From an uncultured Planctomycetia bacterium (GTDB lineage Bacteria > Planctomycetota > MHYJ01 > WSZJ01 > CAZWCX01), in assembly GCA_964632945.1 (NCBI GenBank), contig CAZWCX010000020.1, positions 8,596-72,595 of the forward strand: a DNA stretch of 64,000 nt, in the 5' to 3' direction. The position numbers were made by a program, and so were the translations under genes. Positions 13,887-55,653 of the stretch are shown piece after piece (position 1 is the stretch's first letter; each line of letters opens with the position of its first letter). The notes under the pieces are model-generated. The model did no database searches and had not been told where the DNA came from. It saw only the letters and a program-made list of their open reading frames with translations.

Positions 13887-14000
13887 CGCGACCGCGTTCT
13901 CCCATCGACGGGTGACGGCAACCGAGGCCCGACCCCCGACCCGCCTTCGGGAGACGGGGAGGGCTTTTCCCCGCATTCGAAGTGCGGCGGGGCCATCCCG

Positions 14001-17845: not shown

Positions 17846-17853
17846 ACGACCTC

Positions 17854-18204: not shown

Positions 18205-18480
18205 GGGTGTCTCCTCCAATCGACAGACGAAGGGCGATTCCGAACCTCCCACCCCCGCGGCTTCCTGCCGCGGCGCACCGGCAGCGGGCGACGGCCGATT
18301 CCCCGGGAGCCCCCGGCGCGCCGGTGGGCGGAGACTACGACAACGGATGGACAGGATAGGTCCCGCAGGGCGGAAAATTTTTTCGGCCCCGGGATTTCGG
18401 GCTTGTGGGACCTCCCCTGTCACTCGGGTCCGCTACACTTCCTCCCGTCCGAATGCCGGTGCGAACGCGAAGGGACCGCC

Positions 18481-21738: not shown

Positions 21739-23484
21739 CTACAACTCCACCCGGTTCCGCCCGCCGGCCTTGGCGGCGTACAGGGCACGATCGGCGCGCG
21801 AGAGGAGCCCCTGCAGGTCCCGGGTCGTCGCATCCAATTCGGACACGCCGACGCTGCACGTGACCCGGATCACGTCCCCCCCGCTCGAGGGCAAGGCGAT
21901 CTCGGCAATGCGGCGGCGGAGGTCATCGGCCAGGGCGCACGCCTTCTCCAGCGAGGTCTCGGGCAGCAGGAGAATGATCTCGTCCCCGCCGAAGCGCGCG
22001 CCGATGTCGCATGCCCGCAACCGCTGGCGAATCACCTGCGCGACTTCCACGAGGACGGCGTCTCCCCGATCATGCCCGTACCGATCGTTGATCTCCTTGA
22101 ACCGGTCCAGGTCGATCATGACGGTCGAAACCGTGGTGCCGTATCGCCGCGACCGCGCCAGTTCTTCGTCGGCCCGTTCGGTCAGAAACCGACGGTTGTA
22201 GAGACTCGTCAGCGGATCCACGGTCGAAAGCCGGCGCACCTCCCGCTCGGCCTGGATCCGCTCCGTAATGTCCTTCATGAAACAATAGTGGCCCTGGAAG
22301 GTTCCCTCGGCATCCCGATCCGCGACCATGACGAGCTGCTTGAAAAACTCCGAACCGTCCTTGCGCCGCCCGCGTGCATCGATCTCGACCCTCCCCGTCG
22401 AGATCATCTGGCCGTAGGCCTCCTGCATCCGTTCGAGGTCGTCCGGGTCAACCGTCTGCTGCCATGGACGTCCGATCAGTTCTTCCGGCCGGTACCCGGC
22501 AATGTTCGCATACGCAGGGTTGACCGTCACATAACTGCCGGCCGCATCCAGCCGGGAGATCCCTTCGAGGGCGTGACTGAGGATGGCATTGAAGGCCCGC
22601 AGCTCCCGCTCGGCTTTCTTCTGATCGGTCACGTCGCGAAAGATCCCGCGGGTCGCGACCAGGCGGTCATTCTCGAACTGGCCGTTGACGCTTCCCGACA
22701 ACTCCAGGCGCCGGCCATCCCGGGCGACCAGTACGGTTTCCACGTCGCTGAGACTTTCGCCCTGCACGACGCGCCGGAACATCGCCTCGCAGTGGGCGCG
22801 ATACTCGGGATCGACCAGATCGAAGATATTCAGATTGCCGATTTCGTGGTCCGCATAGCCGAGCAGTTCGCGCCACTTCCGATTGGCGAATCGGATCCGT
22901 CCATCCGGTCCCACGCTCTGGATCAGGTCGTTGGCGTTCTCCATGAAGTCCCGGAGGCGCCTCTCCTGTTCGTGGAACAGCTTCAGCGCCCGGAGCATCT
23001 CGGCGGAACGGAGTTCCGATTCCGCCAGCGCCCCGAGATCATTCAGGATCCGCTCATCCTCCTCGGTGAAACGTCGGGGGGTGCGATCCAGAATGCAGAG
23101 CGCGCCGAGGCGCATCCCGTCCGGTCCCGCCAGGGGGCGACCGGCATAGAACCGGATTCCGGGCGGCCCTTGCACCAGGGGGTTGTCCGAGAAGCGGGAG
23201 TCGGCACGCGCATCCGGCACGACGAGAATCCGATCGGAGAGAATCGCGTGACCGCAAAACGACACGTCACGGGGCGTCGAGTCGACCTCCAACCCCTGCC
23301 GCGACTTGAACCACTGGCGAGCCGCGTCGATGAGCGTGATCAGCGCGATCGGGACGCGAAACAGTTGTTGGGCGAGGCGGGTGACGCGGTCGAACCGCTC
23401 TTCCGGCCCGCTGTCGAGAATTCCCAGCGAATGCAGGACCGCGATTCGATCCGCCTCATTCGGCGGAGCGGCGGGCACCAACAT
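21739..23484 (-). CDS. GAF-PAS-PAS-GGDEF diguanylate cyclase family protein
   Basis: N-terminal GAF, two PAS-like segments, and a GGDEF domain (RFKEINDRYGHDRGDAVL...RFGGDEIILLLPET). The signature reads GGDEI rather than GGDEF. Confidence 0.8.
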   Translation of the reverse strand: MLVPAAPPNEADRIAVLHSLGILDSGPEERFDRVTRLAQQLFRVPIALITLIDAARQWFKSRQGLEVDSTPRDVSFCGHAILSDRILVVPDARADSRFSDNPLVQGPPGIRFYAGRPLAGPDGMRLGALCILDRTPRRFTEEDERILNDLGALAESELRSAEMLRALKLFHEQERRLRDFMENANDLIQSVGPDGRIRFANRKWRELLGYADHEIGNLNIFDLVDPEYRAHCEAMFRRVVQGESLSDVETVLVARDGRRLELSGSVNGQFENDRLVATRGIFRDVTDQKKAERELRAFNAILSHALEGISRLDAAGSYVTVNPAYANIAGYRPEELIGRPWQQTVDPDDLERMQEAYGQMISTGRVEIDARGRRKDGSEFFKQLVMVADRDAEGTFQGHYCFMKDITERIQAEREVRRLSTVDPLTSLYNRRFLTERADEELARSRRYGTTVSTVMIDLDRFKEINDRYGHDRGDAVLVEVAQVIRQRLRACDIGARFGGDEIILLLPETSLEKACALADDLRRRIAEIALPSSGGDVIRVTCSVGVSELDATTRDLQGLLSRADRALYAAKAGGRNRVEL

Positions 23485-23883
23485 GCGATTTCTCTGCTGA
23501 GTGGAAAGGAAAGGGGGCTGGAATCCATGATTCCCGCCTTGCGCCGTACCGGGAATCGTACCTCATTTTCGCATGGTCGTACCATAGGCGATTCTTCGGA
23601 GTCGCTCTCCCGTGCGCGCGGGACGGTCCCGGGGGGGGGCCGCGCCCCGGGCGAGCGACGGCAAGAGCGAGGCCCTTTCACCGCCCGCGTCGGGGCGGCG
23701 GGAAATCGCCTCGCGGCCCGGTCAGGCGAATCGATTCGGGGCGTTCGGGCGTGACGCCATCCTCCCGCGAAGGCTCGGGCGGGACTGCGCCGGACGCCCT
23801 TCCCTCCGCACGGCCCTCGGCTATAATGAGGTCGGGTGGGGAATGGATCGGTCGCGTATGCCATTCACGAGGAGCGGTGTCCA

Positions 23884-34320: not shown

Positions 34321-35244
34321 ATGAACGACGGGAAGCCCGGAGAGGCCAAACCCCTCGTGCCACGCGAGGCCCCCGCCTGCCAGGTCTGCGGCGAACCGCT
34401 TCACGGACGCGCGGTGGTGGAGTGCTGCCAGTGCGGCACTCCGCACCACCTGTCGTGCTGGCGGTTCAACAAGCGCTGTTCCATCTATGGCTGCGGGAGC
34501 CGAAGTTGCCGCCAGCCCGCCCCCTCGCCCGCCCTGAAGTCGGTCGGCCCGTTCGAAGTGAAGGTGAACCCAAGGTACCGGTCCTTCACTCCCCTGGACG
34601 CGATCTCCTTCACCACCGTGGTCGGGATCGCCGGGCTGATGATGCTCCTGGGCCTGCCGGTGGACGGCGTGGTGGGCCCGACCGCGCTCTTGCTGATCCC
34701 GGTGCTGATCGCCCTGCTCGCGGGGATCGATGAACGTCTTTCGGTCGATCCGACCCGCGGGACGATCGACCGCTCCCTGCGGATCAGAGGGCGGACGGTA
34801 TGGTCGGTTCCGGACTGGCTCCGGTTTTCCCGGGTGGTGGAACTCCATGTTCACCGCTGGACCCTGGACGGCATACGGCCGACGCAGATGTGGCAGTTGC
34901 AGGCGCTCCTCGACGACGGGTCCCGCACGAAGATCCTGACCGACTCCCATCCGGGCGGGCAGGGGGAACCCGAACTTCCCCGCATCGCCGAACAACTGGC
35001 GGAGATGGTCGATTGCACGGTTCGGCGGTTCGACGGCGCGGAGCCGCCGGATCGCGCCGAACTCGACGAGGCGGTGACCGCCTGGCGCGATTCCCGGGCC
35101 CTCCCGGCCGCGCCGGAGGCCGCCGGGCCGGATGCTCCCGCCGGCAGCGGCACCCCCGTTCGCGAGATCGTCTCCCCGTCCGCGGACGGCGAGCCGACGA
35201 CCGCGCGAGAGGGCGATTCCGGGACCGACGCCGAACGGCGCTGA
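34321..35244 (+). CDS. Membrane protein with an N-terminal RING/PHD-like treble-clef zinc finger
   Basis: CQVCGEPLHGRAVVECCQCGTPHHLSCWRFNKRCSIYGCGS gives the spacing C-x2-C-x11-C-x2-C-x4-H-x2-C-x6-C-x4-C. Two TM segments follow (ISFTTVVGIAGLMMLLGLPV; LLLIPVLIALLAGI). The ATG at 34321 has GGAGAAGG upstream. Confidence 0.55.
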   Translation: MNDGKPGEAKPLVPREAPACQVCGEPLHGRAVVECCQCGTPHHLSCWRFNKRCSIYGCGSRSCRQPAPSPALKSVGPFEVKVNPRYRSFTPLDAISFTTVVGIAGLMMLLGLPVDGVVGPTALLLIPVLIALLAGIDERLSVDPTRGTIDRSLRIRGRTVWSVPDWLRFSRVVELHVHRWTLDGIRPTQMWQLQALLDDGSRTKILTDSHPGGQGEPELPRIAEQLAEMVDCTVRRFDGAEPPDRAELDEAVTAWRDSRALPAAPEAAGPDAPAGSGTPVREIVSPSADGEPTTAREGDSGTDAERR

Positions 35245-35302
35245 GGCCGGGCCGGCGCGGGAGGCCGGTCCTTCCCGTCGCCGACCGGGCGAGCGGCGCT
35301 TC

Positions 35303-38300
35303 CTACCCCTTTCCCTTCTTCACCGAGATGCCGGCCTCCTTGAGCCGGTAGTAGAACGTGCTGCGCGCGAGGCCGAGTCGCTGCGCGGCCTTTTCCACGC
35401 TTCCGCCGGCTTCGTCGAGCACGGCCTTGTACACGTCCGCCACGATCTGGTCGAAGGTCTTGTCGCGGATCGAGACCATTCCCTTCATGTCGATGGCCGC
35501 GCTCGAGCCGCCCCGCCGGCGGCCGCCGCCGTCCGCTCCGACCCCCGCTCCGGCGGGTCGATAGTTCGCGATCTCGGGGCTGATGTCCTCGAGCGTGATC
35601 GCCTCGCCGGCGAAGGCGAGTGCCCGCTTCACCTCATTTTCCAATTGCCGGATGTTCCCCGGCCACTCGAAGTCGACGATCCGCCGCATGGCGTCGCGCG
35701 CGACTTCCTTTTTCGGCGTGCCGCTCTCCGCGGCGTACTTCTCCAGGAAGTGCTCGATCAGCAGCGGCAGGTCGTCCCGGCGCTCCCGCAGCGGCGGCAG
35801 CCGCAGCGTGAAGACGTTCAGGCGGTAGTAGAGGTCCTCGCGGAACGTCCCCTCCTCCACCATCTTCTTCAGGTCCCGGTGGGTCGCGGCGATGATGCGG
35901 ACGTCCACCTTGATCGACTTCTTTCCGCCGACCGGACGGATCTCGCCCTCCTGGAGCACGCGCAGGAGCTTCTTCTGCATCTCCAGGCCCATCTCGCCGA
36001 TCTCGTCGAGGAAGAGGGTGCCGCCGTTGGCGAATGCGAACAACCCCTCCTTGTCTTTGTCCGCGCCGGTGAACGAGCCCTTGACGTGGCCGAAGAGCTC
36101 GCTTTCGAGCAGCGATTCCGGCAGCGCGCCGCAGTTTTCCGCGACGAACGGCTTGTCCTTGCGGGGGCCGTTGAAGTGGATCGCCTTGGCGACCAGTTCC
36201 TTTCCGGTGCCGCTTTCGCCGTGGATGATCACGGGGAAGTGGGTCTCGGTGATCTTGTCGAGGACCTTGAACAGTTCCTGCATCGCCTTGGAGCGGCCGA
36301 CGATGTTGCCGTAGGAGTACTTCGTGCGCAGCTGCTCCAGGCTGGTGGTGAGCGTGCGCTTGAGGAAGTCGGCCTCCTCCTTCTGGCGCGCGTACAGGCG
36401 CGAGTTTTCGATCGGGGCGGCGATCTTGTCGGCGAACTGGGCGAGCAGCTCCCGGTCCTCCTCGGTGAAGCGCTTGTTCCCGGCCAGATTATCCATGTAG
36501 ACGACGCCGATGGTCTCGCCTTCGAGGTGGATCGGCACCGACAGGATCGAGCGGATCTGCAGGTCCATGATCGAGTCCTGGCCGCGGAACTGGCTTTCGG
36601 CCAGCGCGTCGGTGACGACCGCGGGCTCGCCGGTGCGCGCGACCTGCTCGACGATGGTGCTCGAGAACTCGAACTGCGGAGAGCGGATCTCCTCGTCGTT
36701 GAAGTTGAGCGCAGTGACGGGTTTCAGCTTGCCGTCGACGCCGCGCAGCATGATGAAGCCGCGCTCGGCGCGAGTGACCTGGAGCATCATGCGCATGGTC
36801 AGTTCGAGGACCTTGTCGAGGTCGAGGCCGGCGTTGATGACCTTCATGAGCATGCCGAGGACGGTGATGCCGTCGCGGGAGACGACGAGCTGGTCGAGGT
36901 CGGCGTCCTGGGCGACCTTGCGCTGGACTTCGCGTTCGCTCTCGACGCCGGCCTCGAAGGTGAAGACGCAGTTGCGGCCGTTGCGTTTGGCGTTGTAGAC
37001 CGCCTCGTTCAGGCGTTCGCGTGTGGAAGTCAACGTCTGCGCGTCGGTCGGGCAGGTCAGGACGCCGACGCTGACGGTGACGTTGACGTCGCGGCCCGCG
37101 GCCTGGAAGGGCCAGGTGGCGATTTCGGTGCGCAGGCGGTTGGCCAGACGGACGGCCTCCACGCGTTCGGTCTCGGGCAGGACGACATCGAACTCGTCGC
37201 CTGCGCCGCGGCCGAGGACGTCGACGTTGCGGATCCCCTTGCGCAGGATGCCGCAGACCTCGCGCAGGATGTCGTTGCCCGCTTCGGCGCCGTGGAAGTC
37301 GTTGATCACCTGGAAGCGGTCCAGGTCGACGCGCAGGATCGAGACCAGGCGGCTGTAGCGCCGGCAGCGGTCGAGTTCGCGCTCGAGGATGCCGTCCACG
37401 TAGGCCGGAACGAAGGCGCCGCTCACGCGGTCGAAGACCATCTGCTGGTGCAGTCGCGCGTTGTCGAGGGCGACCGCGGCGTGGTCGGTCATGACCAGGA
37501 GGAGCGCGGCCTCGCGCTCGGCGAAGGCCTTTTCGGTGAACAGGCTGTCGAGGTAGAGCGCCCCGGCGATCGCCCCGCGCATGCGGATCGGGACGCAGAT
37601 GATCGAGCGCACGCGCAGTCCGGCGACGTCGCCGAGCGGAGCGAGGCGCTTGTCGGTCTGGGCGTTCGGCGTGAGCAGGATCTCGCCGGTCTCGATCACA
37701 CGTTCGGCGATCCCCTTGGAGATCTTGGTCGCCGGATCGTCGATGTCGCGACTGCCCAGGTTGCGCGAGACCTCGAACTGGAGGCGCCCGCCGGTGGCGC
37801 CGCCGGCGCCCCGCAGAATGAGGAAGCCGCGGTCGGCCCCGGTGATCTCGATCGCGGTGTCGATGATGTACTCGAGGACCTTGCGCGGATCCTGTTCCGC
37901 GCCGATCCGGCGGCCGACCTCGACCAGGCGCACGAGCTGCGAGAAGTCCTTCCCCACCGGCGAACCGGCGTGGTCGCGGACCAGGTTGGCGAACCAGCGG
38001 TCGGCCCCGGCGGAGGTGAAGTCGGCGGCGAGCGTGGTGGTCTCGTCCTTGCGCGACTGCACCTCGGTGTCGATTTTGGCCGCGAGTTCGACGGCCGCCT
38101 TGCGCCGGGGGTCGCGGGCGTACGCCTCGCGGTACTCTTCGGGCAGTTTGGCGGCGACCTGGGCAAAGACCTTGCGCACCTCCTCCGCGTGGAAGCCCGC
38201 CTTGAGCGGGTGGTTGCGCTTGCGCAGGACCTCGGCGAGCCCGGTGTGCGCCTGCCAGAGGAATTCCGGGTTTTTCACCGACTGGGCGAGTTCGCGCGCG

Positions 38301-41300
38301 CGATCGAGCGACTCGCGGGCGTCTTCCAGCGTCTCCGGGTCGCGGGATCGGCGGACCAGGACCATTCCCTGGACCAGGTAGGCGCGCGCGAGCAGGGCGC
38401 GCATGCCGATCTTGCTGGCGAGCTCCACCGCCTGCCGGGCGCTTTCCAGTGCAAGGTCGAATTCCTCGCGCGCGAGATGGACGAAGGCGCGCTCGGACAG
38501 GTGATACGCGCGCTCGTCGCGGGCCCGCGCCTCCGCGGGGACCTTGTCGGCGGCCTCCAGGTTGACGAGCGCGGCGTCCGCGTTCCCCATGCGGCGGTCG
38601 ACCGTCGCCATGCAGCCGAGGTAGCGCGCCTGGTGCGACCGCATGCCCCGGCTTTGCGAAATCGTCAGCGCGCGCTCGGCCACCGCGCGGGCGCTCGCGG
38701 AGTCCCCCATCGTCAGGTAGAGCCGGCACAGGTAGTGCGAGACGTCGAGGATGCCGTCCATGATCCCGCCTTCCTCGAAGATCTCGAGGCTGCGGGCGAG
38801 GCAGTCCTTGGACTCGCCGTAGTCCCCCTGGGAGTAGTGCAGGATACCCGTGGCGCCCAGACAGGAACCGAGCAGCCAGCGGTCGGAGACTTCCATGGCG
38901 ATCTGGGCCGCGCGCTTCAGGCACGGCATGGCCTGGTCGTATTCGGCGCGCAGGACCTGGATGAGGCCGACGCCCGCGAGGGCGTGGCCGACCCCGCCCT
39001 TGTCCCGGATCTCCTCGGCGATGCGCAGGGCCTTTTCATAATGGCGCATCCCCTCGTCGAGGTCCCCCTTGCCCATCGCGATGCCGGCGAAATTGGCGTG
39101 CGCGTTGGCCATGCGGCGCTTGTCGCCGATCTCGACGGCGGTGGACATCTGCCGCTCGACGAATCGGGCCGCCTCGTCGTATTCGCCGCGCGCGCGGTGG
39201 ATGACCCCCATGTTGCCGTAGGCGCGCGCCAGTTCGTCCTTGTTTCCCGCCTCTTCGGCGGTCTTGATCCCCTTCTGGAAGAAGCGGATCGCCTCCTCGT
39301 ACTGCGCCCACATCCGATAGAAGAGCCCGACGTTGCCGAGGGCGCGGCAGAGCAGGTTCTTGTCCCCGATCCCTTCGGCGATGCCGATCGAGACGTTCGC
39401 GTAGCGGAGCGCCTTGTCGTACTCGGTGCGGGCGTAGAAGATCTCCCCGAGCGTGCTGTAGACCACGCCGAGGCCGCGCCGGTCGCCGGCGTTGGTGAAG
39501 ATCTCCTTCGCGCGCGCGACGTGGTCGGAGAAGCGGTCGTTGTCCCCCTTGATCTGGTAGATGTGCGCCATGTGCGCGTGGACCTGGCCGCGCCGGGGGT
39601 CCCCCTCCGGGAGTCGCTGAACGGCGACCTCGAACTTGGCGAGCGCGTCGTCGAAGCGACCGACCACCCGGTAGATTTCGCCCGCGAGCGCCGCGACCTC
39701 GGCCACCTTTTCGCCCGGCAGTCCGTCGATGCCGAGCAGCCCGTTGAAGAGCGCCAGGGCCTGGTCGTTGGCGTAGAGGCGCATCAGTTCGCGGCCCGCC
39801 TCGAGGCCGTACTTGATCCCGCGCTCGGGCTCGCCCGCGCGCAGGAAGTGGCGCGCCAGTTCCTCGACGTGGCTGCGCGACGCGCTCGACTCGCGCTCGA
39901 GATACTCGCCCATGCGCCGGTGCAGGCGCCGGCGGGCGTCCTCCCCGAGCTGGCCGTACACCACCTTCTGAATGGTGGCGTGCGCCGGCCGATGCAGCCC
40001 CTTGGCCGAGCGAGCGGACCCGGAGCCGCCGTCCGTCTCCTCGCGTTGCACGAACCCCTTGCGCTCGAGCGCACGCAGGCACTCCCCGAGCGCAGGGCTC
40101 TTCACGTCCGCGACCGCCCCGATCAGGTCGGCGTCCGCCGGCCGCTCGATCGCCGCGAGCGCGTGCAGCACCGCCGCCTCGTCGCCCGTCAGCCCGGACA
40201 GACGCCGGTGCACCACCTCCTCGATCGTGCGCGGAATCTCGAGCTGACCCTTGTCGACCGCCCCCATCTCCCAGCGGCCGCGCTCATGCGCGACCACCCC
40301 CTTCTCCACCAGCGTCATCATGACTTCCTGGACGAAGAACGGGTTGCCGCCGGTCTCGGCCGTGATGCGATCGGCGAACGCGTCCAGCCCCTTCACCTCG
40401 CCGAACATCCCCCCCACCAGCTCCCGCACCCCGTCCACGCCGAAGCGCGCCAGTCGAATCATCTGCACCGGGCATTCGGCCTCCATCTCGCGCAGGACCG
40501 CCGCCAGCGGCCCCTCCTCCTCGAGACGGCTCGTGCCGATGAGATGCAGCCGGGGCAGCGACTCCAAACCCTCGTCGCCCGCCGCCAGGCGCGCGCGCTT
40601 GAGCTGCAGGTTCGCGGCCAGGTACCGCATCACCTCCAGCGTCCCCTGGTCGGCCAGGTGAAGATCGTTCAAGCACACGACGAGTGGACGATCGCGCGCG
40701 ACGTCGAGCAGAAACGACGCGAGATTGTCGATCAGGCGCAGGTGCTCCTCGCGCGGCTCCAACTTCGCGGACGGTTTCAACCGCTGCTCGGCCGCCAGTT
40801 CGGGCAGAAGCTTCACCAGCTCCGGACCGAACCGGGAGAGACGGTCCTTTCCCGGCCCCAGTCGGATCACCTGCTTCAGCACCTCCACGAACGGCCCGTA
40901 AGCGCGCGCCGTCCGCTCGTACCCGGTCCCCTCGGCGAACGCGATCCCCTGCAACTGGCAGTGGATGCGGAACTCGCGCAAGAGCCGCGATTTCCCGATC
41001 CCCGCCTCGCCCGCGATCAGCGTGAACGCCGGCAGGTTGATGTGCTTCTTCGCCGCCACGTCCTCGAGGCCGGTCTTGAGCAATGAGAATTCCTTCTCAC
41101 GCCCTACGAATTTCGCCGACAGCACATAGCCGCGTTTCGTCTCCCGCGTCTCGACCTCGAACTCGCGCCCGGCGATCCGGCTGATCGCCAGGATCACGTC
41201 CGCCGCGCGCTCGAACCGGTCCTTCGGGTCCTTGGCCATCAATCGCAGGATGATCTGCTCGAATCCCGCGCTGATGCGTGGATTCACTGCGCTCGGCGGC

Positions 41301-42043
41301 GGCGGCGCATCCTCGAGGTGCTTCTTGAGGATCAGCAGCGACGTGCCCGCGTCGAACGGGACCTGGCCGCTGGCGACGTGGTAGAGCGTGACGCCGAGCG
41401 AGTAGAGATCCGCGCGCGCATCCGCGCGGTCGCCCCGCGCCACTTCGGGAGCGATGTAGTGGACCGAGCCTTTGACCTTGTTGCGGCCACGATCCGCCGT
41501 AAAATTCCCCGCCAGGCCGAAGTCGAGCAGCTTGATCGTGTTGTAGGCGAATGGTGAGGCCAGGATGGTGAGGAGATCGTCCTTGCCGATGTCGTACGCG
41601 GCGCGCGCGGCCTCCTCGTTCGTGACCATGATGTTCGTGGGCTTGAGGTCGTGATGGACCAGGCCGCGCGAGTGAATGTACTCCAGCACCCGACAGATCT
41701 GGGTCACCAGCGCGTACAACTGATTCGGGGCGAGCCCCCGGGTCGCCTCGAAGAAATTGCAGCCGTTGACGAATTCCTGCGTGAAGAAGTACGTGTCCGA
41801 CGTCTCGACCACCCCCATGTCATAGACCTCGGCCAGGTGGGGATGGGTCAGGCGGGTCAGGTTCTCGAACTCCGCCTTCAGGTGGCGGGCGGAGTCCTCA
41901 TCGACCAGACCGGGACGGAGCCGCTTGAGCGCCATCAACCGTCCGTCCCGGACCTGGTCCTCGACGAGGTAGACGTTCGCCATCCCGCCATCGCCGAGGT
42001 GGCGCAAGACCCGGTAGCGGTGATGGAGGACTTCGGGGGCCAT
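35303..42043 (-). CDS. Giant (2246 aa) multidomain regulator: Ser/Thr kinase + STAND/AAA_16 NTPase + TPR array + GAF + GGDEF (AGDEF variant) + GAF + sigma-54 AAA+ activator + Fis-type HTH
   Basis: One uninterrupted frame. Kinase motifs: LGDGGMANVYL, ALKRL, HHDLKPTNIMV, DFGLAG, HYIAPE. P-loop LIAGEAGIGKSRLL with a STAND-like region. More than 15 TPR-like repeats. GAF (…RGFLILRG…). GGDEF domain (RVDLDRFQVINDFHGAEAGNDIL…GRGAGDEFDVVLPET). A second GAF. Sigma-54 module: GESGTGKE Walker A, GSFTGA (a variant of GAFTGA), and EDLYYRLNV. C-terminal HTH EKAAQRLGLARSTFYYRLK. The start ATG is at 42041-42043. Confidence 0.75.
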   Translation of the reverse strand: MAPEVLHHRYRVLRHLGDGGMANVYLVEDQVRDGRLMALKRLRPGLVDEDSARHLKAEFENLTRLTHPHLAEVYDMGVVETSDTYFFTQEFVNGCNFFEATRGLAPNQLYALVTQICRVLEYIHSRGLVHHDLKPTNIMVTNEEAARAAYDIGKDDLLTILASPFAYNTIKLLDFGLAGNFTADRGRNKVKGSVHYIAPEVARGDRADARADLYSLGVTLYHVASGQVPFDAGTSLLILKKHLEDAPPPPSAVNPRISAGFEQIILRLMAKDPKDRFERAADVILAISRIAGREFEVETRETKRGYVLSAKFVGREKEFSLLKTGLEDVAAKKHINLPAFTLIAGEAGIGKSRLLREFRIHCQLQGIAFAEGTGYERTARAYGPFVEVLKQVIRLGPGKDRLSRFGPELVKLLPELAAEQRLKPSAKLEPREEHLRLIDNLASFLLDVARDRPLVVCLNDLHLADQGTLEVMRYLAANLQLKRARLAAGDEGLESLPRLHLIGTSRLEEEGPLAAVLREMEAECPVQMIRLARFGVDGVRELVGGMFGEVKGLDAFADRITAETGGNPFFVQEVMMTLVEKGVVAHERGRWEMGAVDKGQLEIPRTIEEVVHRRLSGLTGDEAAVLHALAAIERPADADLIGAVADVKSPALGECLRALERKGFVQREETDGGSGSARSAKGLHRPAHATIQKVVYGQLGEDARRRLHRRMGEYLERESSASRSHVEELARHFLRAGEPERGIKYGLEAGRELMRLYANDQALALFNGLLGIDGLPGEKVAEVAALAGEIYRVVGRFDDALAKFEVAVQRLPEGDPRRGQVHAHMAHIYQIKGDNDRFSDHVARAKEIFTNAGDRRGLGVVYSTLGEIFYARTEYDKALRYANVSIGIAEGIGDKNLLCRALGNVGLFYRMWAQYEEAIRFFQKGIKTAEEAGNKDELARAYGNMGVIHRARGEYDEAARFVERQMSTAVEIGDKRRMANAHANFAGIAMGKGDLDEGMRHYEKALRIAEEIRDKGGVGHALAGVGLIQVLRAEYDQAMPCLKRAAQIAMEVSDRWLLGSCLGATGILHYSQGDYGESKDCLARSLEIFEEGGIMDGILDVSHYLCRLYLTMGDSASARAVAERALTISQSRGMRSHQARYLGCMATVDRRMGNADAALVNLEAADKVPAEARARDERAYHLSERAFVHLAREEFDLALESARQAVELASKIGMRALLARAYLVQGMVLVRRSRDPETLEDARESLDRARELAQSVKNPEFLWQAHTGLAEVLRKRNHPLKAGFHAEEVRKVFAQVAAKLPEEYREAYARDPRRKAAVELAAKIDTEVQSRKDETTTLAADFTSAGADRWFANLVRDHAGSPVGKDFSQLVRLVEVGRRIGAEQDPRKVLEYIIDTAIEITGADRGFLILRGAGGATGGRLQFEVSRNLGSRDIDDPATKISKGIAERVIETGEILLTPNAQTDKRLAPLGDVAGLRVRSIICVPIRMRGAIAGALYLDSLFTEKAFAEREAALLLVMTDHAAVALDNARLHQQMVFDRVSGAFVPAYVDGILERELDRCRRYSRLVSILRVDLDRFQVINDFHGAEAGNDILREVCGILRKGIRNVDVLGRGAGDEFDVVLPETERVEAVRLANRLRTEIATWPFQAAGRDVNVTVSVGVLTCPTDAQTLTSTRERLNEAVYNAKRNGRNCVFTFEAGVESEREVQRKVAQDADLDQLVVSRDGITVLGMLMKVINAGLDLDKVLELTMRMMLQVTRAERGFIMLRGVDGKLKPVTALNFNDEEIRSPQFEFSSTIVEQVARTGEPAVVTDALAESQFRGQDSIMDLQIRSILSVPIHLEGETIGVVYMDNLAGNKRFTEEDRELLAQFADKIAAPIENSRLYARQKEEADFLKRTLTTSLEQLRTKYSYGNIVGRSKAMQELFKVLDKITETHFPVIIHGESGTGKELVAKAIHFNGPRKDKPFVAENCGALPESLLESELFGHVKGSFTGADKDKEGLFAFANGGTLFLDEIGEMGLEMQKKLLRVLQEGEIRPVGGKKSIKVDVRIIAATHRDLKKMVEEGTFREDLYYRLNVFTLRLPPLRERRDDLPLLIEHFLEKYAAESGTPKKEVARDAMRRIVDFEWPGNIRQLENEVKRALAFAGEAITLEDISPEIANYRPAGAGVGADGGGRRRGGSSAAIDMKGMVSIRDKTFDQIVADVYKAVLDEAGGSVEKAAQRLGLARSTFYYRLKEAGISVKKGKG

Positions 42044-42442
42044 CCTTGTTCCTGGAATTTGGACTCGGGGACAGCCTGTACCCCAGGCGGGTGGATGGGT
42101 TCCGATTGCGTCGGGGGGGAGGAATCAGCGTCGGCAGAGACGTTACCAGATTCTGGATGCTGGTGTCAAAGAGGTTCCAAGAAGTTGCATCCACTTCCGG
42201 GCGATCGAAAGGCGGCAGGGAAGAGGCCGGACCCTGGGGTTCGCATCCGGGAGCACCCGCGACCCCGCAGCGGCGGAAAGTCCAGGGCGTCCCGGCCGAC
42301 GTGCCGGATCCGGGGACGCCCGGCGCGCGCAGGCCACCGAGCGGCCGGCTCGCGAACCGGGGGTCGGGGGAACATCTCCCTCGCTCCGCCCGGGGCGCCC
42401 CGGACGGGAACCTTCGTCCCCCGTCGCTTCAGGACACCCGCG

Positions 42443-43537
42443 TCACCGCTTCACCGCCGCGCAGATCTTCTGCAGCAGCGGGTTGTCGAAATCGCTCATC
42501 GCCGCCGCGCGGCCCGGCGACCCCGACTCGCCCAGGCGGGTGATGACCAGATCGAGACTGCGAATGACGTAGATCTTGCTGTCCTTCGCGCCGAGGGCGG
42601 CGACCGTGTCCGTCGGGGCGTCGGGGAACAGCATCCCCTTCCGGGTTCGATCCAGATAGGGGGTTCGGTGGCTTGCGCTCCCGTTCAGCCACCACAAGTA
42701 GCCGTACGCGCCGTTGTCGCTGCCGGAGGGCCTCGTGGCCATGTCGACGTACCGGGACGAGACGATCTGCTCCTTCCCCCAGCGCCCCCCCCGCAGGATC
42801 AGGAGGCCGAACCGGGCCATGTCCCGACAGGTCGTCTCCAGGCCGTGATGGGTCAATCGCTCCGAGTTCTCCGTGACGGACATCATCGCGCAGCGCGATT
42901 GCAGCATGCCGATCCGCCGGAACAGCACCTCCTGTGCGAACTCGTCGCGCGTCTTCTTCGTCGCCCGGTGGATCAGGGTGCCGACCAGTCCATACGCCGG
43001 ATTGCAATACGCCCAGCGGGTTCCCGGGTCGTAATCCAGGGGAAGGTCGAGCGCGAATCCGGTCTTGTCCTTCGCGCGCATGTGTTCGATCATGTCGGAG
43101 CGCACGGAAGAGTGAAGCCCCGAGGTCATCGTGAGCAGGTGGCGGACCGTAATCTTCTCTTTCTCCGTCCCCTTCCATTCGTGGAACCAGGTCGACGCGC
43201 TCTCGTCCAGGTCCGGAATGAACCCGCGTTCGTGGGCGATGCCGACCAGCACGCTGTCCACGCTCTTCTGCGCGGAGTACATGTCCCGAACCGTCTGCCG
43301 GCTCCAGCCGTTCCAGTACCGTTCCGCCACGATGCGGCCGCCGCGCACCACGACGAGGCCGTGCGAGTTCCGCTCGCCGGCGAACGCCAGTGCCTCTTCG
43401 AGAAGCCTCGGGTCCATGCCCGCCTCGACCGGCGGGATCGCTTCCCACTCTCGATCGGGAACGTACGGTCCTTCCGCGAGCGTGATCGCGGGGAGCAGCA
43501 AGAGGAGCAGGACGGCGGGGCAAGCGAGTCTCTTCAT
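42443..43537 (-). CDS. Secreted serine hydrolase, beta-lactamase family
   Basis: Signal peptide MKRLACPAVLLLLLLPAITLAEG. S-x-x-K motif YSAQKS, and YCNPAYGL and HSGLET-like elements. The start ATG is at 43535-43537. The track ORF starts 90 codons earlier in R-rich sequence. Confidence 0.7.
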   Translation of the reverse strand: MKRLACPAVLLLLLLPAITLAEGPYVPDREWEAIPPVEAGMDPRLLEEALAFAGERNSHGLVVVRGGRIVAERYWNGWSRQTVRDMYSAQKSVDSVLVGIAHERGFIPDLDESASTWFHEWKGTEKEKITVRHLLTMTSGLHSSVRSDMIEHMRAKDKTGFALDLPLDYDPGTRWAYCNPAYGLVGTLIHRATKKTRDEFAQEVLFRRIGMLQSRCAMMSVTENSERLTHHGLETTCRDMARFGLLILRGGRWGKEQIVSSRYVDMATRPSGSDNGAYGYLWWLNGSASHRTPYLDRTRKGMLFPDAPTDTVAALGAKDSKIYVIRSLDLVITRLGESGSPGRAAAMSDFDNPLLQKICAAVKR

Positions 43538-48611: not shown

Positions 48612-50180
48612 TCAGGGTCCCGCGATTCCGGCCCCCGACTCCGCCAGCGCGCGCACTTCCACGCGCAGGTCGTCGATCGCCGGACGCAGCGAGGCGTCGA
48701 CGTGATCGAGGTGGCGGCGACGGTCCGCGACCTCCCAAAACGTCTCCTCCCGCGCCTCTTGAACCTCCTGGAATGCCGTTTCGACCGTCTCGCGCCGGAT
48801 CTTGGCAAGCTCGCGCACCAGGCGGCGGTCGACCTCCTTCTCCCCCGCTGCGCGCATCTTCGCGGCCAGGATGATGTGGGCCTTGACCACCCCGCCGAGT
48901 TCGGCCAGGGAGGTCTCGTCCCGGTCGAGGGAGATGAACAGGTTCAGGATCTCCGCGCGGTTCGGCACCTTCATCCGGTAGGCCTGGTCGACGATCTCCG
49001 CGAGGTCGTACGCCACCACGTTCAGCAGGTAGGGGATGCCCATCCGCGCCGCCTGGTGGCCGTAGTAGTCGAGATAGAAGGCGACGCGCGCCGCCCGCTC
49101 GGGCTGGAGCTCGAGCAGGGCCTGGGCGACGAGGCGGTACTGGTAGACGAAGCGGTAGAACGCCTGATTCCGGCGCGCCTGGAGGGCGACGCGGAGGAAG
49201 GTATTGAAGTAGAGAATCGTCATTTCGCGGGCCCCCGCGTCCCCCTGACGCGCCGACTCGACCGCGAAGTGCCGCGACAGGGAGGCCACGACCGCGACGG
49301 TCTCCGGCAACCGCTCCATGGCCAGGGGCAGGATCCGGAGCAGGTCGCCGAGGAGCGCCGCTTCGATCACCGCCCGATGGCGCTCGACGGCCGCCGCCAC
49401 CTCGGGTCCCATCCCGTGCATCCGGCCGGAATCGACTCGGAACCACTCGTCGGGAAGGTGGGGCTTGACCCGGATGTAGTGGTCGAACAGGGAGCGGAAG
49501 GTCCGCAGAACGTGGTCGACGGTCTCCCGGTCGTACCGGTCCACAGACCGCAAGGCGATGTCCCCGAGGAACTGCACGTGCTGCACCGCCCCGGCGCACG
49601 CTTCCTGGATGACTTCCGGATCCGAACCTCCGCGCGCCCGCTCCATGCCGTCCACCACTCGCTGTCCGAGCCGAAACACGATGTTGGCGGGCACCAGGAA
49701 GCGCAGGACGTAGTACGTGTACGGAATGATGATCAGGGCGCCGGCCGCACCGGAGAGCAGGCAGAGGAGCACGCGCGTGCGGGGATCGCCGGAAAACCCG
49801 GGCGACTCGATCACGAACTTGTTCCACAGCACGAACACGTTCGCCAGCACGAAGTACGAAAGGACGATGCGAGTCCCCCGGTCGGCGACGAAGAGATCGA
49901 TCAATTTGGGGGTATAGACGTTCGCGGTGAGCGGAATCGCAATGGCGCAGAGGGCGACCGTCGCCGACAGCCCGACTCCCAGCAACCGCGACACGTCGCG
50001 GAGGATTTCGCTCGTGCGCCCCAGGGAGGCTCCGGTGCCGGGTGTTCCCGATCCGATCCATTCGAACCCGAACAGGAGCAGGACCGTGGCCACGAGCGCT
50101 CCGACCCCGATCAGGCGCGGGCGCCCGGGGTGCGTGAAGGGGGAAGACGGCGCGGCGTGAAGTTCGGAGGGTTGATTCAT
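48612..50180 (-). CDS. DUF2254-family integral membrane protein
   Basis: Five or six N-terminal TM segments and a large soluble C-terminal region. The overall layout (TM bundle followed by …FRLGQRVVDG…HVQFLGDIALRS…) matches predicted-membrane-protein DUF2254. Confidence 0.5.
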   Translation of the reverse strand: MNQPSELHAAPSSPFTHPGRPRLIGVGALVATVLLLFGFEWIGSGTPGTGASLGRTSEILRDVSRLLGVGLSATVALCAIAIPLTANVYTPKLIDLFVADRGTRIVLSYFVLANVFVLWNKFVIESPGFSGDPRTRVLLCLLSGAAGALIIIPYTYYVLRFLVPANIVFRLGQRVVDGMERARGGSDPEVIQEACAGAVQHVQFLGDIALRSVDRYDRETVDHVLRTFRSLFDHYIRVKPHLPDEWFRVDSGRMHGMGPEVAAAVERHRAVIEAALLGDLLRILPLAMERLPETVAVVASLSRHFAVESARQGDAGAREMTILYFNTFLRVALQARRNQAFYRFVYQYRLVAQALLELQPERAARVAFYLDYYGHQAARMGIPYLLNVVAYDLAEIVDQAYRMKVPNRAEILNLFISLDRDETSLAELGGVVKAHIILAAKMRAAGEKEVDRRLVRELAKIRRETVETAFQEVQEAREETFWEVADRRRHLDHVDASLRPAIDDLRVEVRALAESGAGIAGP

Positions 50181-50369
50181 GTCGAACCGATGGTATCACC
50201 GGCTGCCGTCGACCGGCAAGATCCGGGCCACCCTCCCTCCGCCGGATCGACCGGGGGCCTCCGGCGCTCCGTCGCCAGCCCGCGATTGACGCGCCGCGCG
50301 TCGCCCGGATACGCTGACGCTCCGGTGTGCGCCCCGCGTCTTCCCACCTCCTCGGAGCGAGCCGCGATC

Positions 50370-52627: not shown

Positions 52628-52744
52628 TCGTCCCGGATCCGTGCGACCCCGAGGTTCGTCGTCATGACCTCACGCGGCCCCCGCTCGACTTCGCGTGGCG
52701 GGCCGAGATCGGATCTCCGCAACCCCGTTTGCCCGGGAGGACGA

Positions 52745-54241
52745 ATGGAATCGAACGTCCGGCACGGTCTTCATCGATTTCGCCTCATCGGGCTCGCGTT
52801 CCTCGCTTTCGTGGCGACGGTCGCCGGCGTCGGCGCCCAGGCGGATCCGCCGAATCCGCAACTCCCCTCGTGGGTAGCGCAGGTGCAGAGGGACGGCGAT
52901 CCGGCGCTCATCCCGGCCACGCCGGAGTGGGCGACCCTGCCCCCGGAACTGCGGGAGCGGATCCTCGGCTCCATCGCCACCCGCATGAAGGCCGAACCCG
53001 CACTCCTCCAAGAGGATCTCCCCGGCCCGGATTGGCCCCGTCTGTTCCTGGCCGCGTATCGGGGCCAGACCGACATCGTCCGCCTGTTGCTCGATCTCGG
53101 GGCCAAGACGCAGGCCCTCATCGATGCCAACCGGGGCGAGGGTGGGTCGCTGAAAATGCCGACCTCGGTCCTGCACGCCGCGCTTGCCATGATGCGGCCC
53201 ATGACGGATGAGCCCCCCGGGTGCTCGCCGGAAACCGTCCGCCTGCTGCTGTCGCGAGGAGAAGACGCGAACGAGACTCTGGATCGAAGCCTCGTGCGTT
53301 TCACCGTCCCACTTCACGCGGCGGTATTCGCCGGCGAGGAGTTCGTCCAGATCCTGCTGGATCACGGAGCAGATGTCCATGCCCTCGACCCGGAGGGGAA
53401 CTCGGTGATGCACCTGGTGGAGAAGACAGGAATTGCCGTGCGCCTGGCCGTCGCCGGGGCGCGCCTCGACGTTCGAAACTCGGAGGGGCACACCCCGCTC
53501 GAATGGGCGGCTTTGCACACCGGGAGGATGGAGATCGCGGAATGGTTGGTCGCGCAGGGGTGGCCGATGACCGCGGAGATTGCCGCAGTCATGGGGCGGA
53601 CGGAATTCGTGATGCAGGCCGTCGCAACGGATCCCGAACTCCTCCACGAACCCGGCGCCTATCGGCGGACCTTGCTCCACCACGCCGCCGCTCGCGGACA
53701 TGCCGACCTGGGGCGGCGACTTCTGCGCGCGGGCGCCAAGGTGGACGTTGTCGACTTGATGCGCCGCACTCCGCAGGAGTACGCGTTGATGATGAACTGC
53801 GAAGACCTGGTCCGGGCCCTGCTAGACCAAGGAGCCGACGTCAACCAGGTGAGCAGCAGCGGAGAGCCCCTGTTCCACCAGGCCATCTTCGCCAGTGATT
53901 CCCTGACCCGACTGCTGCTCGAACGCGGTGCGGATCCGGGCCGGACCGGCGACACGGGGGAGACGCCCTTGCACCCGGCCGTCCGGAGCGGCAGAGCGGA
54001 GACGGTGACTTTCCTGATCGAGCGGGGCGTTCCGATCGATGCGCCGTCCAAAAACGGCGATACCCCGCTCCTGACGGCCCTTCGTCGCAGCTACCATCCC
54101 CGGAATCCCGCGGTGGTTCGCGTCCTGCTGGAAGCGGGGGCGGATCCCAATGTGCAGGCCCATGACGGTCTCACCCCGATGCATCTGGCATCCGATCTCC
54201 CCGCCGTCCAACTGCTCCTCCGGCGACACGGCGCCCGTTGA
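52745..54241 (+). CDS. Secreted ankyrin-repeat protein
   Basis: Signal peptide MESNVRHGLHRFRLIGLAFLAFVATVAGVGAQA. At least 8 ANK repeats (…TPLEWAALHTGRMEIAEWLVAQG…, …TLLHHAAARGHADLGRRLLRAGAKVD…, …TPLHPAVRSGRAETVTFLIERGVPID…). The ATG has GGGAGGA upstream. Confidence 0.75.
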   Translation: MESNVRHGLHRFRLIGLAFLAFVATVAGVGAQADPPNPQLPSWVAQVQRDGDPALIPATPEWATLPPELRERILGSIATRMKAEPALLQEDLPGPDWPRLFLAAYRGQTDIVRLLLDLGAKTQALIDANRGEGGSLKMPTSVLHAALAMMRPMTDEPPGCSPETVRLLLSRGEDANETLDRSLVRFTVPLHAAVFAGEEFVQILLDHGADVHALDPEGNSVMHLVEKTGIAVRLAVAGARLDVRNSEGHTPLEWAALHTGRMEIAEWLVAQGWPMTAEIAAVMGRTEFVMQAVATDPELLHEPGAYRRTLLHHAAARGHADLGRRLLRAGAKVDVVDLMRRTPQEYALMMNCEDLVRALLDQGADVNQVSSSGEPLFHQAIFASDSLTRLLLERGADPGRTGDTGETPLHPAVRSGRAETVTFLIERGVPIDAPSKNGDTPLLTALRRSYHPRNPAVVRVLLEAGADPNVQAHDGLTPMHLASDLPAVQLLLRRHGAR

Positions 54242-54343
54242 TTTCCTCAACCTCCACACGGATTCCTCACGGGCTCCATCGATTCTCCATGGCGGTGGGC
54301 TATTCTTTCCCGGGAACGACGGACTCAGGGAAAGGAGAAGACC

Positions 54344-55558
54344 ATGCGCCTGCTGCGTCTCTTCGCCATCGTGCTGATCTACCTGCTGGGCTGCGCCGGA
54401 TGGGGCGCGTTGGGGTTTCTGACCGAGTACCGCTCCCACGGCGCCAGCGAACGGCTCACCGGGCGTGTGGAGTCGCTCTGGGGAGAACCCCTCGTCCAGG
54501 AGGCGCCTTCGGTCACCATCCCGATGCCGGGAGAGGAGGAGCCCAGGGCGGTGGCCCCGGTCCGATGCGAGGCGAAGGTCGACCTCCGGGCGGACCACCG
54601 GCGCAAGGGGTTGGTGTGGTACCCGACGTACGTATGCCGGTTCGAGTCGGCCTGGACGATCGCCAACGAGGAGGTCGAACCGCGCCGCCTGGACGTGATG
54701 TTCCGCTTCCCCACTCCCGGGGGAACGTACGACGGTTTCGAGCTGCGCGTCGGTGGTGCGCGGATGCAGACTCCGGTCGACACGCGAACGGGAATCCGGT
54801 TGGGCTTGGACCTCGCCCCGGGGGAATCGCGGGAGTTCCGTATCGCCTACACGACGCGCGGATTGGGGGAGTGGCGCTTTCGCGCCGCGGGCCGGGCGGG
54901 ACGCGTGCGCGATCTCGACCTCGCAGTGCGCACGGACTTCGAGCGGATCGACTACCCCGAGGGCGCACTTTCCCCGATGGACGTCCGCGTGGATGCGGAC
55001 GGGGCCGCCATGACCTGGCGCGCCTCCGACCTGCTCACCACCCAGGACATCGGGGTGGTGGTCCCGGAAAAACTCAATCCGGGACCGCTGGCCTCGCGAA
55101 TCACCTTCTTCGCCCCGGTCTGCCTCCTGTTTTTCTTCGTCACGGTAGGGACGATCGGCATCGTGCGCGGCGTCGACATCCACCCGATGCACTACCTGTT
55201 CGTGACTGCGGGGTTCTTCACGTTCCATCTCCTCCTGGCCTACCTGGTCGATCATCTGGACGTGCATGCCTCGTTCGCCATCGCATCGGCGGCGTCCGTG
55301 CTGCTGGTGACGACCTACCTGCGGGCCGCGCTGGGGTCGAACTATCCCAGCGGGATCTCCACGGCCGCGCAGATGTTCTTCCTGGTCCTGTTCTCGTACA
55401 GTTTCTTTCTCGAAGGGACCACGGGCTTGACGGTGGCGATCGGGTCGGTGCTCACGCTCGCGGCGTTGATGCGGGTCACGGCCCGGGTCGACTGGTGCGG
55501 CGTGTTCTCCTGGCGCGGGTCGAACGCGAGTTCCCCGGGCCTGGTGGAACCCGCCTGA
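54344..55558 (+). CDS. CreD-like inner-membrane protein
   Basis: N-terminal TM, a ~230-aa periplasmic beta-rich region, and a C-terminal multi-TM block with the CreD-like segment GVDIHPMHYLFVTAGFFTFHLLLAYLV. Confidence 0.55.
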   Translation: MRLLRLFAIVLIYLLGCAGWGALGFLTEYRSHGASERLTGRVESLWGEPLVQEAPSVTIPMPGEEEPRAVAPVRCEAKVDLRADHRRKGLVWYPTYVCRFESAWTIANEEVEPRRLDVMFRFPTPGGTYDGFELRVGGARMQTPVDTRTGIRLGLDLAPGESREFRIAYTTRGLGEWRFRAAGRAGRVRDLDLAVRTDFERIDYPEGALSPMDVRVDADGAAMTWRASDLLTTQDIGVVVPEKLNPGPLASRITFFAPVCLLFFFVTVGTIGIVRGVDIHPMHYLFVTAGFFTFHLLLAYLVDHLDVHASFAIASAASVLLVTTYLRAALGSNYPSGISTAAQMFFLVLFSYSFFLEGTTGLTVAIGSVLTLAALMRVTARVDWCGVFSWRGSNASSPGLVEPA

Positions 55559-55653
55559 CGCGTTTTTGTTCCCGCGCGGGGGGAGTCTCCCGGTAGAATC
55601 TGCGCATCCGCCCGTCCGGCGTCCCGGGCGGGCGGACGTTGCGAGCGACCCCC

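Follow-up and report, generated by a model that had tools for sequence, protein, structure and literature searches.

A planctomycete gene joining a kinase-STAND-TPR unit to a GAF-GGDEF-GAF sigma-54 activator belongs to a widespread, unstudied family and may specify a c-di-GMP-sensing regulator

The question raised by this locus is whether a single bacterial gene can specify a Ser/Thr kinase, a STAND NTPase, a TPR array, a GAF domain, a GGDEF domain, a second GAF domain, a sigma-54-interacting AAA+ domain and a helix-turn-helix (HTH) in one chain and, if so, whether such a fusion is new and what the GGDEF domain does within it. The gene lies at 35303..42043 on the minus strand of a 64,000-nucleotide stretch (the window) of contig CAZWCX010000020.1, from an uncultured Planctomycetia bacterium (GCA_964632945.1), and all of its features given below are on that strand. 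It had been described, in an original prediction made from the letters of the DNA, as a novel fusion that would wire Ser/Thr phosphorylation and cyclic di-GMP (c-di-GMP) chemistry to sigma-54-dependent transcription. The present study finds a genuine single coding sequence that is neither unique nor unprecedented. Its product is read here, with confidence a little above even, as a large cytoplasmic 'one-component' multi-input sigma-54 activator in which the GGDEF domain would act as a c-di-GMP sensor.

The window has a G+C content of ~69%, and spurious long open reading frames (ORFs) are frequent in DNA of this composition. The ORF under study starts with ATG and specifies 2246 amino acids (aa), with no internal stops in its translation. 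Its G+C content at the first, second and third codon positions is 0.70, 0.42 and 0.92, and the third-position value (GC3) stays between 0.875 and 0.95 in all 200-codon blocks, being uniform across the junction of the N- and C-terminal modules. The minus strand can be taken as the coding strand because of this pattern, which is mirrored on the opposite strand: a 1984-aa ORF there, also with an ATG start (35132..41086, plus strand), has values of 0.92, 0.43 and 0.70, and was rejected as a shadow ORF rather than a gene. A protein identical to the translation (P0001) is already present in the public protein collection.

Two orthologues bear most directly on the integrity of the gene. P0002, of 2241 aa, comes from metagenome assembly GCA_900218215.1, shows 77% identity and aligns over 100% of the query, while P0003 (MBI3268797.1; 2329 aa, 50% identity), from a groundwater Planctomycetota metagenome-assembled genome (MAG), likewise covers 100% of it; both have the same Pfam content. 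Compared with P0002, the query has a ratio of non-synonymous to synonymous substitution rates (dN/dS, Nei-Gojobori) of 0.21 over the whole gene. No domain reaches 0.4: the kinase stands at 0.21, the AAA+ domain at 0.09 and GGDEF, with the lowest value in the protein, at 0.05. Values below 0.4 in each domain indicate that the whole length is under purifying selection as a protein. It could be argued that the long ORF is artefactual, an error in sequencing or assembly having fused a kinase-STAND-TPR gene to a separate GAF-activator gene, since both halves also exist as stand-alone proteins and their junction is a poorly conserved linker. However, unbroken ORFs of 2241-2329 aa with identical domain order are found in three independent assemblies, more than 100 further clusters join a kinase and a sigma-54 enhancer-binding protein (EBP) in one protein, and GC3 is even across the junction, and this explanation is effectively refuted. 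The claim of a single polypeptide, free of a frameshift or missed stop, is thus borne out by orthologues of the same end-to-end architecture in independent assemblies.

Pfam matches were counted only above the curated gathering scores, which all of the domains named here exceed. When the profiles were run on the translation, every domain called beforehand was supported, all eight domain types and their order were recovered, and the signature motifs that had been quoted were all found at the expected residues.

The novelty of the fusion did not survive comparison. In a search with the full-length query against clusters at 90% identity, 116 of the best 120 clusters considered carry Pkinase, AAA_16, TPR, GAF and Sigma54_activat, usually with HTH_8. 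Most of these 120 are 1650-1900 aa in length, and at least 13 have an embedded GGDEF domain. Their source MAGs and metagenomes bear labels such as Planctomycetes, Acidobacteria, WOR-3 and Edwardsbacteria, with Planctomycetota and Acidobacteriota in the majority, and the proteins carry source names such as 'sigma 54-interacting transcriptional regulator' (NCBI), 'Nif-specific regulatory protein' and 'serine/threonine-protein kinase PknK'. The GGDEF-GAF-EBP arrangement also occurs without a kinase. Residues 1540-2246 were used in an exhaustive HMMER scan covering 1.84 billion representatives, and among the top 150 clusters examined there are 29 that match contiguously from GGDEF to AAA+; only five of the 29 are long enough to include the kinase-STAND unit, and the remainder (~24 clusters of 650-1130 aa) are GGDEF-GAF-EBP proteins without it. 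The gene is therefore a member of a widespread, catalogued yet unstudied family, within which it belongs to a rarer sub-type with GGDEF, and is best described as unusual. A full-text literature search found no description of a kinase-STAND-EBP fusion or of an architecture with GGDEF inside an EBP, and the kinase architectures of prokaryotes surveyed in 2005 include kinase plus MalT-like (PknK) and kinase plus TPR plus GGDEF proteins but none with a sigma-54 module (PMC1262709).

The relatives also suggest how the protein arose. Kinase-STAND-TPR proteins lacking further modules occur (P0049, P0111), and the same N-terminal unit is found with other outputs, namely SpoIIE/PP2C in P0062 and HisKA/HATPase in P0080. 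P0121 (910 aa), conversely, is a GAF-GGDEF-GAF-Sigma54-HTH protein without a kinase, 37% identical over the whole GAF-GGDEF-GAF region of the query. Since both modules also occur alone, the simplest history would be a fusion of a pre-existing kinase-STAND-TPR module to a pre-existing GAF-GGDEF-GAF-EBP module. The join would lie in a variable linker at residues 1271-1383 (37895..38233), the least conserved part of the protein, with 24% identity to P0003, which has a Gly/Ala-rich insertion there.

The N-terminal module opens with a Hanks-type Ser/Thr kinase domain (residues 10-278; 41210..42016; Pkinase, 139 bits) with the motifs GDGGMANV (17-24), MALK (with K40), HHDLKPTN (130-137), DFG (174-176) and APE (198-200). 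Aligned to Mycobacterium tuberculosis PknB, it has G17/G19, K40, E58, D132, N137, D174 and APE 198-200 intact, which is the residue set expected of an active kinase, and the catalytic residues are kept in 34-37 of 37 aligned relatives. The Arg of the HRD motif is replaced by His, giving the non-RD (HHD) catalytic loop that had been predicted, and is missing in 32 of the 37 relatives as well. Between the catalytic loop and DFG, where the PknB alignment splits, lies a 24-residue insert (residues 142-165; 41549..41620), which is common only to P0002 and P0003. In another member, P0021 (2278 aa), the kinase is degenerate (HGALAPES where HxDxKPxN is expected, and HFA instead of DFG), while the STAND, GGDEF (FGDEF, with an intact inhibitory site) and EBP modules are retained; the kinase can therefore turn pseudokinase within the family.

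The kinase is followed by the AAA_16 core of a STAND NTPase (residues 311-482; 40598..41113; 81 bits). Its P-loop is intact, as claimed, with the Walker A sequence GEAGIGKS (345-352), in which the Lys (K351) is invariant among the family, and a Walker B-like stretch reads LNDLHLAD (D460, D465); the first acidic position of the latter is Asn in the query and variable family-wide, while 29 of 37 relatives have the Asp that follows it. A winged helix (residues 617-669; 40037..40195) is indicated by TrmB, HTH_27 and MarR_2 matches and by the predicted fold, and the TPR sensor array (residues ~781-1270; 38234..39703) by TPR_12 (135 bits) and TPR_MalT (73 bits). An AlphaFold2 (AF2) model of residues 290-1290, built from a 38-sequence alignment, has a mean predicted local distance difference test score (pLDDT) of 88.7, rising above 90 in the TPR array, and a predicted template modelling score (pTM) of 0.70. 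It shows a five-stranded P-loop core, a helical domain, the winged helix, an arm, and ~14 TPR-like helix pairs that run from about residue 723 to 1290. The top Foldseek match of this model in the PDB is 6mfv, the STAND-TPR protein PH0952. PDB sequence searches and Foldseek gave LGN/Pins-like TPR matches for the array, and a PDB sequence search with the region spanning the nucleotide-binding oligomerisation domain (NOD) and TPRs returned TPR proteins only, with no close solved relative of the NOD. Judged from sequence and model together, the region has the parts of a MalT/PknK/AfsR-type STAND protein: a P-loop NOD, helical and winged-helix domains, and a repeat sensor.

The C-terminal module contains two GAF domains, GAF-A at residues 1384-1527 (37463..37894; GAF_2 54 bits, GAF 52 bits) and GAF-B at 1740-1876 (36416..36826; GAF 73 bits), and in neither was a diagnostic motif found from which a ligand could be predicted. 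The sigma-54-interacting AAA+ domain and its lid occupy residues 1914-2163 (35555..36304), with Sigma54_activat (PF00158; 1914-2080) at 251 bits and AAA_lid_14 (2086-2163) at 75 bits, and are followed by a Fis-type HTH (HTH_8, residues 2206-2236; 35336..35428; 30.4 bits against a cut-off of 22) with its HTH motif at 2219-2239. The AAA+ motifs include Walker A (GESGTGKE, 1942-1949), the L1 loop (GSFTGA, 1989-1994) and Walker B (FLDEIGE, 2011-2017), as well as REDLYYRL and WPGNIRQLEN. The F and T of the L1 loop are kept in 33-34 of 37 relatives, and GSFTGA is a GAFTGA variant listed as compatible with activation in the EBPs of D. vulgaris (PMC4641369). By Foldseek, the modelled AAA+ domain matches ZraR, FlrC, FleQ and NtrC1 with template modelling (TM) scores of at least 0.9, root-mean-square deviations of 1.3-1.8 A and 44-52% identity. 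Profiles, motifs, the L1 loop and fold matches all agree with the earlier view that this is a complete bacterial enhancer-binding module, comprising an AAA+ domain with GSFTGA, a lid and a Fis-type HTH.

Residues 1731-2243 align end to end with the NifA profile TIGR01817, but at 424.2 bits against an equivalog cut-off of 528.85, and NorR, NtrC, FhlA and others also fall below their cut-offs, so that identity as a NifA equivalog was rejected. An AF2 model of residues 1370-2246 (pLDDT 78.6, pTM 0.36) gives the order GAF-A, a 28-residue helix, GGDEF, a disordered stretch, GAF-B, a helix of ~48 residues (~1861-1908; 492-539 of the model) connecting GAF-B to the AAA+ domain, the AAA+ domain itself, a second disordered stretch and the HTH; the packing of domains in it is unreliable because of the low pTM.

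STAND-TPR sensors with N-terminal effectors are typical of Avs and NLR-like defence proteins, and the layout of kinase, STAND and TPR could on that ground be read as an anti-phage conflict protein with kinase and AAA+ effectors, and not a transcription factor. This is most improbable given that the chain ends in a complete sigma-54 activator that includes an HTH, that PADLOC returned generic kinase and RtcR/PspF-type AAA+ matches only and no STAND defence model, and that no defence-island context was seen.

The remaining question, that of the GGDEF domain (residues 1547-1691; 36971..37405; 94-100 bits), turns on a comparison of its active site with its inhibitory site (I-site). Its closest solved sequence relative is GacA (6d9m; E = 4e-29), followed by PleD (1w25), and alignments to these two structures allow each position to be assigned. 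The signature reads AGDEF (1614-1618), with Ala for the first Gly, Q1578 stands at the position of PleD K332 and N1590 at that of D344, which determines base selectivity. The DxLTGLxNRR stalk junction is absent, its place being taken by DRVSGAFVPAY. Retained are D1573 (D327), N1581 (N335), D1616-E1617, K1686 (K442) and R1690 (R446). The I-site, in contrast, is intact: R1605-N-V-D1608 precedes AGDEF by the usual five residues (VLGRG), and R1636 corresponds to PleD R390 and GacA R393. In P0002 the domain is 90% identical to that of the query with the signature AADEF, and in P0003 the signature is DADGL and D327, N335, K442 and R446 are all lost. All three proteins retain RNVD five residues ahead of the signature, together with the counterpart of R390.

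The same trend is seen among the 43 EBP-linked GGDEF domains that were compared. The signature is non-canonical in 25 (58%), and RxxD at the exact spacing is found in 17 of these 25 against 2 of the 18 with a canonical signature (Fisher p = 4e-4, uncorrected for kinship). Among the 25 degenerate domains conservation stands at 80-84% for R359, D362 and R390, compared with 36-40% for D327, K332 and N335 and 44% for K442, and in several clades the signature has drifted freely (QEDVF, SEQVI, REHGF, FGDEF, SCDEY) with the I-site held. A degenerate active site with a retained I-site is the pattern of the GGDEF-derived c-di-GMP receptors PelD, PopA and SgmT. The query lacks both the GG(D/E)EF signature and the DxLT...NRR junction that mark a cyclase, and has the features that mark an I-site receptor, namely RxxD five residues before the signature and a second Arg. 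Because the active site is altered here and decaying in orthologues while the I-site is conserved, sensing of c-di-GMP appears likelier than its synthesis, and the domain is probably not mainly a cyclase. The earlier mention of c-di-GMP chemistry was accordingly the weakest part of the original interpretation, there being three departures in the active site of the query, further decay in its orthologues and a conserved I-site.

Several observations nevertheless weigh against a sensory role or favour the view that the GGDEF domain is an active dinucleotide cyclase under the control of GAF-A, with a nucleotide preference possibly altered by the Asn, such that one protein would combine messenger synthesis with sigma-54 activation. 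The active site of the query is only mildly altered, the Mg- and phosphate-binding D1573, N1581, D1616/E1617, K1686 and R1690 all being present, and the query is among the least degenerate of the EBP-linked members. The strong conservation of the domain between query and P0002 (dN/dS 0.05) would be equally compatible with catalysis. Residual or altered cyclase activity is conceivable because VCA0965 of V. cholerae, an AGDEF enzyme, synthesizes c-di-GMP (PMC3974145). Variation at the base-selectivity position need not mean loss of function, as is shown by GacA, which carries Ser there (PMC6456294). Asn occupies this position in 11 of the 43 EBP-linked domains, four of which have a canonical signature (P0192, P0203, P0205, P0252), and four others pair a GGDEF signature with the Hypr-type Ser (P0004, P0006, P0191, P0197). 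These Asn- or Ser-bearing members with canonical signatures may be cyclases of non-canonical nucleotide specificity fused to sigma-54 activators, and, as a side possibility, Asn could mark a further nucleotide-specificity class beside Asp and the Hypr Ser. For the query itself, an active cyclase is unlikely, though worth keeping in mind, in view of the Gln at K332, the absence of the junction typical of regulated cyclases, the AADEF of P0002 and the losses in P0003, and the retention of I-site residues in the 58% of EBP-linked domains that are degenerate.

Another way to read the decay of the active site across the family is that the domain has become a nucleotide-blind structural or dimerisation spacer between the GAF domains, so that phosphorylation and the ligands of the GAF and TPR domains would be the regulator's sole inputs. 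The long flanking helices in the AF2 model are as expected for a dimeric signalling relay, and the GGDEF-less version of the family is far commoner, which implies that GGDEF is dispensable for the core mechanism. Against a passive spacer, R359, D362 and R390 are 80-84% conserved and are kept even in clades whose signatures have become QEDVF, SEQVI or REHGF, and dN/dS for the GGDEF domain is the lowest in the protein; a spacer role seems unlikely.

If the preferred reading, a multi-input sigma-54 activator with a c-di-GMP sensor, is correct, its workings could be envisaged as follows. The HTH would bind enhancer sites and the AAA+ ring would remodel the sigma-54 holoenzyme, with GAF-B keeping the AAA+ domain inactive until a signal arrives, in the manner of NifA, NorR and FhlA. 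The GGDEF domain would bind c-di-GMP through its I-site (R1605, D1608, R1636), and the cellular level of the dinucleotide might then modulate the geometry of GAF-B and the AAA+ domain. A ligand or partner on the TPR array would switch the STAND domain from a closed ADP form to an open, oligomerising ATP form, for which the closed-to-open multimerising switch of MalT is the model (PMC4381067). Such oligomerisation would raise the local concentration of both AAA+ and kinase domains and so promote ring assembly as well as trans-phosphorylation, with either the protein itself or other substrates as targets. Since the kinase is non-RD, its trigger would probably be proximity and not phosphorylation of the activation loop. 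Taken to its full extent, this would make the protein the representative of a new class of sigma-54 activator, in which a TPR-ligand-switched STAND domain nucleates both an AAA+ ring and a trans-phosphorylating kinase array, and a degenerate GGDEF domain gates assembly via c-di-GMP at the I-site; that proposal is a tentative one, and rather more doubtful than not.

The preferred reading has further points to contend with. Each step of the mechanism is derived from what is known of the domain families concerned, the templating of an AAA+ hexamer by a STAND oligomer is speculation, and the symmetries of the two oligomers may be incompatible. The gene neighbourhood offers little help. No conserved neighbourhood is shared with the loci of P0003 (L001) and P0002 (L005) beyond domain-level matches, and rpoN does not lie within the 64-kb window, the only sequence covered. 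Matches to the sigma-54 promoter motif TGGCAC-N5-TTGCW, allowing up to two mismatches, are not enriched in the window (12 found, 13.4 expected), and none adjoins the gene. The organism nonetheless appears to have the required partners. A gene for an NtrC-type REC-Sigma54_activat-HTH_8 protein (8678-10099, minus strand), a second EBP in the window, implies that a sigma-54 system is present, and the canonical cyclase described next would supply the messenger.

That cyclase is predicted from a GAF-PAS-PAS-GGDEF gene (21739-23562, minus strand), whose product shows canonical cyclase features (DPLTSLYNRR, the K, N and D residues, and RxxD) with the signature GGDEI. The enzyme is likely to produce c-di-GMP in this organism, and it makes a useful contrast with the altered GGDEF domain of the fusion protein.

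As for the genes flanking the fusion gene itself, the upstream neighbour is of the beta-lactamase family and has the same orientation, and the downstream one, convergent with the fusion gene, is Prok-RING-like. The 399-nucleotide (nt) upstream gap (42044-42442) has no ORF with coding-like GC3, in agreement with the statement that it is free of credible ORFs. The accompanying suggestion that it carries the promoter is plausible, and receives modest support from a block, TTGACA (42169-42164), an 18-nt spacer and TAACGT (42145-42140) with TGG before the -10 (42140..42169), which is conserved with the upstream region of the P0002 locus, the 77% orthologue, but not of the P0003 locus. On the other hand, a consensus scan of 34900-42600 for sigma-70 promoters and terminators made no promoter call and found no terminators at the gene ends, and the block can be proposed as a sigma-70-type promoter with low confidence. 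No Rfam family reached its gathering score in the 399-nt leader or elsewhere in the window. The only sub-threshold match, to 'P36' at 42440-42485 (28.8 against 36 bits), coincides with hairpins where the upstream gene ends; these GC-rich hairpins (42400-42485, minus strand) directly follow the stop codon of the beta-lactamase-family gene, include the palindrome CCGGGGCGCCCCGG, and may form a T-tract-less terminator separating the two genes.

Two of the sigma-54-like matches in the window, which overall are at chance level, can be noted individually. A one-mismatch -24/-12 match, CGGCACGTGGGTTGCT (7501-7516, plus strand), lies just upstream of a tandem universal-stress-protein gene (7479-8606, plus strand) that is convergent with the NtrC-type gene, and a 2025 survey found UspA genes to be enriched for sigma-54 promoters in Planctomycetia (PMC12316311). 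The other, TGGCCCGGATCTTGCC (50215-50230, minus strand), has two mismatches and lies 20 nt upstream of an ORF for a DUF2254 membrane protein (48612-50195); statistically it is at chance level.

Elsewhere in the window are several other large or composite genes. Those at 10941-14000 (minus strand) and 17545-20889 (plus strand) specify a Pkinase-TPR protein of 1019 aa and a protein of 1114 aa that combines an HSP70-like fragment with TPRs. The gene at 55597-57108 (plus strand) specifies an L-asparaginase, with both its N-terminal and its C-terminal domain, that continues into ankyrin repeats at the C-terminus, a layout known in the eukaryotic 60-kDa asparaginase/lysophospholipase. About 1.4 kb upstream of it is a gene for an ankyrin-repeat protein of ~537 aa (52628-54241, plus strand), with a CreD-like gene (54242-55558) in between. 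The Pkinase-TPR and HSP70-like-TPR fusions fit a Planctomycetota-like genome with many multidomain kinases.

If the proposed wiring is true, one polypeptide would feed Ser/Thr phosphorylation, a STAND switch, ligand sensing by GAF and TPR domains, and c-di-GMP into a single transcriptional output, four signalling systems that are usually studied separately. It would be the first EBP to read c-di-GMP via a GGDEF receptor domain, and the first chain to couple two different oligomerising ATPases. Members of the family are plentiful in Planctomycetota, Acidobacteriota and uncultured lineages related to them, and none has been studied. The family would provide a natural test of whether STAND-induced oligomerisation can drive the assembly of an AAA+ activator, and its members form a series in which the active sites of GGDEF domains decay and the I-site is kept.

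How, then, does the protein compare with systems already known? Its nearest counterparts are in its own family, where P0002 and P0003 share the full architecture with the embedded GGDEF; most members, at ~1700-1800 aa, differ from it in having neither GAF-A nor GGDEF, and all are experimentally uncharacterised. PknK of M. tuberculosis exerts its effect on transcription in trans, through phosphorylation of another regulatory protein. It resembles the query in its N-terminal Hanks kinase, AAA_16-type NTPase and MalT-like TPR region but has no GAF, GGDEF or sigma-54 module. The C-terminal region from GAF-B through the AAA+ domain to HTH_8 (1731-2243) aligns to NifA, NorR and FhlA, from which the query differs in scoring below their equivalog cut-offs and in having ~1700 extra N-terminal residues. 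The receptors PelD, PopA and SgmT have in common with it a degenerate GG(D/E)EF, RxxD five residues upstream and a second Arg; none of them is an EBP. Krupa and Srinivasan (2005) class PknK as 'Kinase + MalT-like', and the same survey includes an 1826-aa protein of Clostridium thermocellum with kinase, TPR and GGDEF domains, the same three types in one chain as in the query, although there GGDEF is the C-terminal output and a GAF-EBP module is lacking (PMC1262709). MalT and other STAND activators are alike in having a NOD (P-loop, helical and winged-helix domains), an arm, a repeat sensor and a DNA-binding effector in the same chain (PMC4381067), and the modelled region finds its best structural match in PH0952 (6mfv), an archaeal STAND-TPR protein. 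The effector of MalT, however, is a LuxR-type HTH working with sigma-70, whereas those of the query are a kinase and a sigma-54 AAA+ domain, the latter a second oligomerising ATPase in the chain. GacA (6d9m) also has the base-selectivity Asp replaced (Ser348, compared with N1590) and a GGDEF-type Asp, not GGEEF, but it is an active cyclic GMP-AMP (cGAMP) synthase with an intact GGDEF, K332 and DxLT, where the query has AGDEF, Gln and Asn (PMC6456294). Lastly, FleQ (PMC3424551), VpsR and FlrA are EBPs that respond to c-di-GMP, the outcome proposed here. The EBPs of the FleQ type bind the dinucleotide on their AAA+ domain, whereas the query is predicted to do so through the I-site of its GGDEF domain, which would represent a possible new route from c-di-GMP to sigma-54 transcription.

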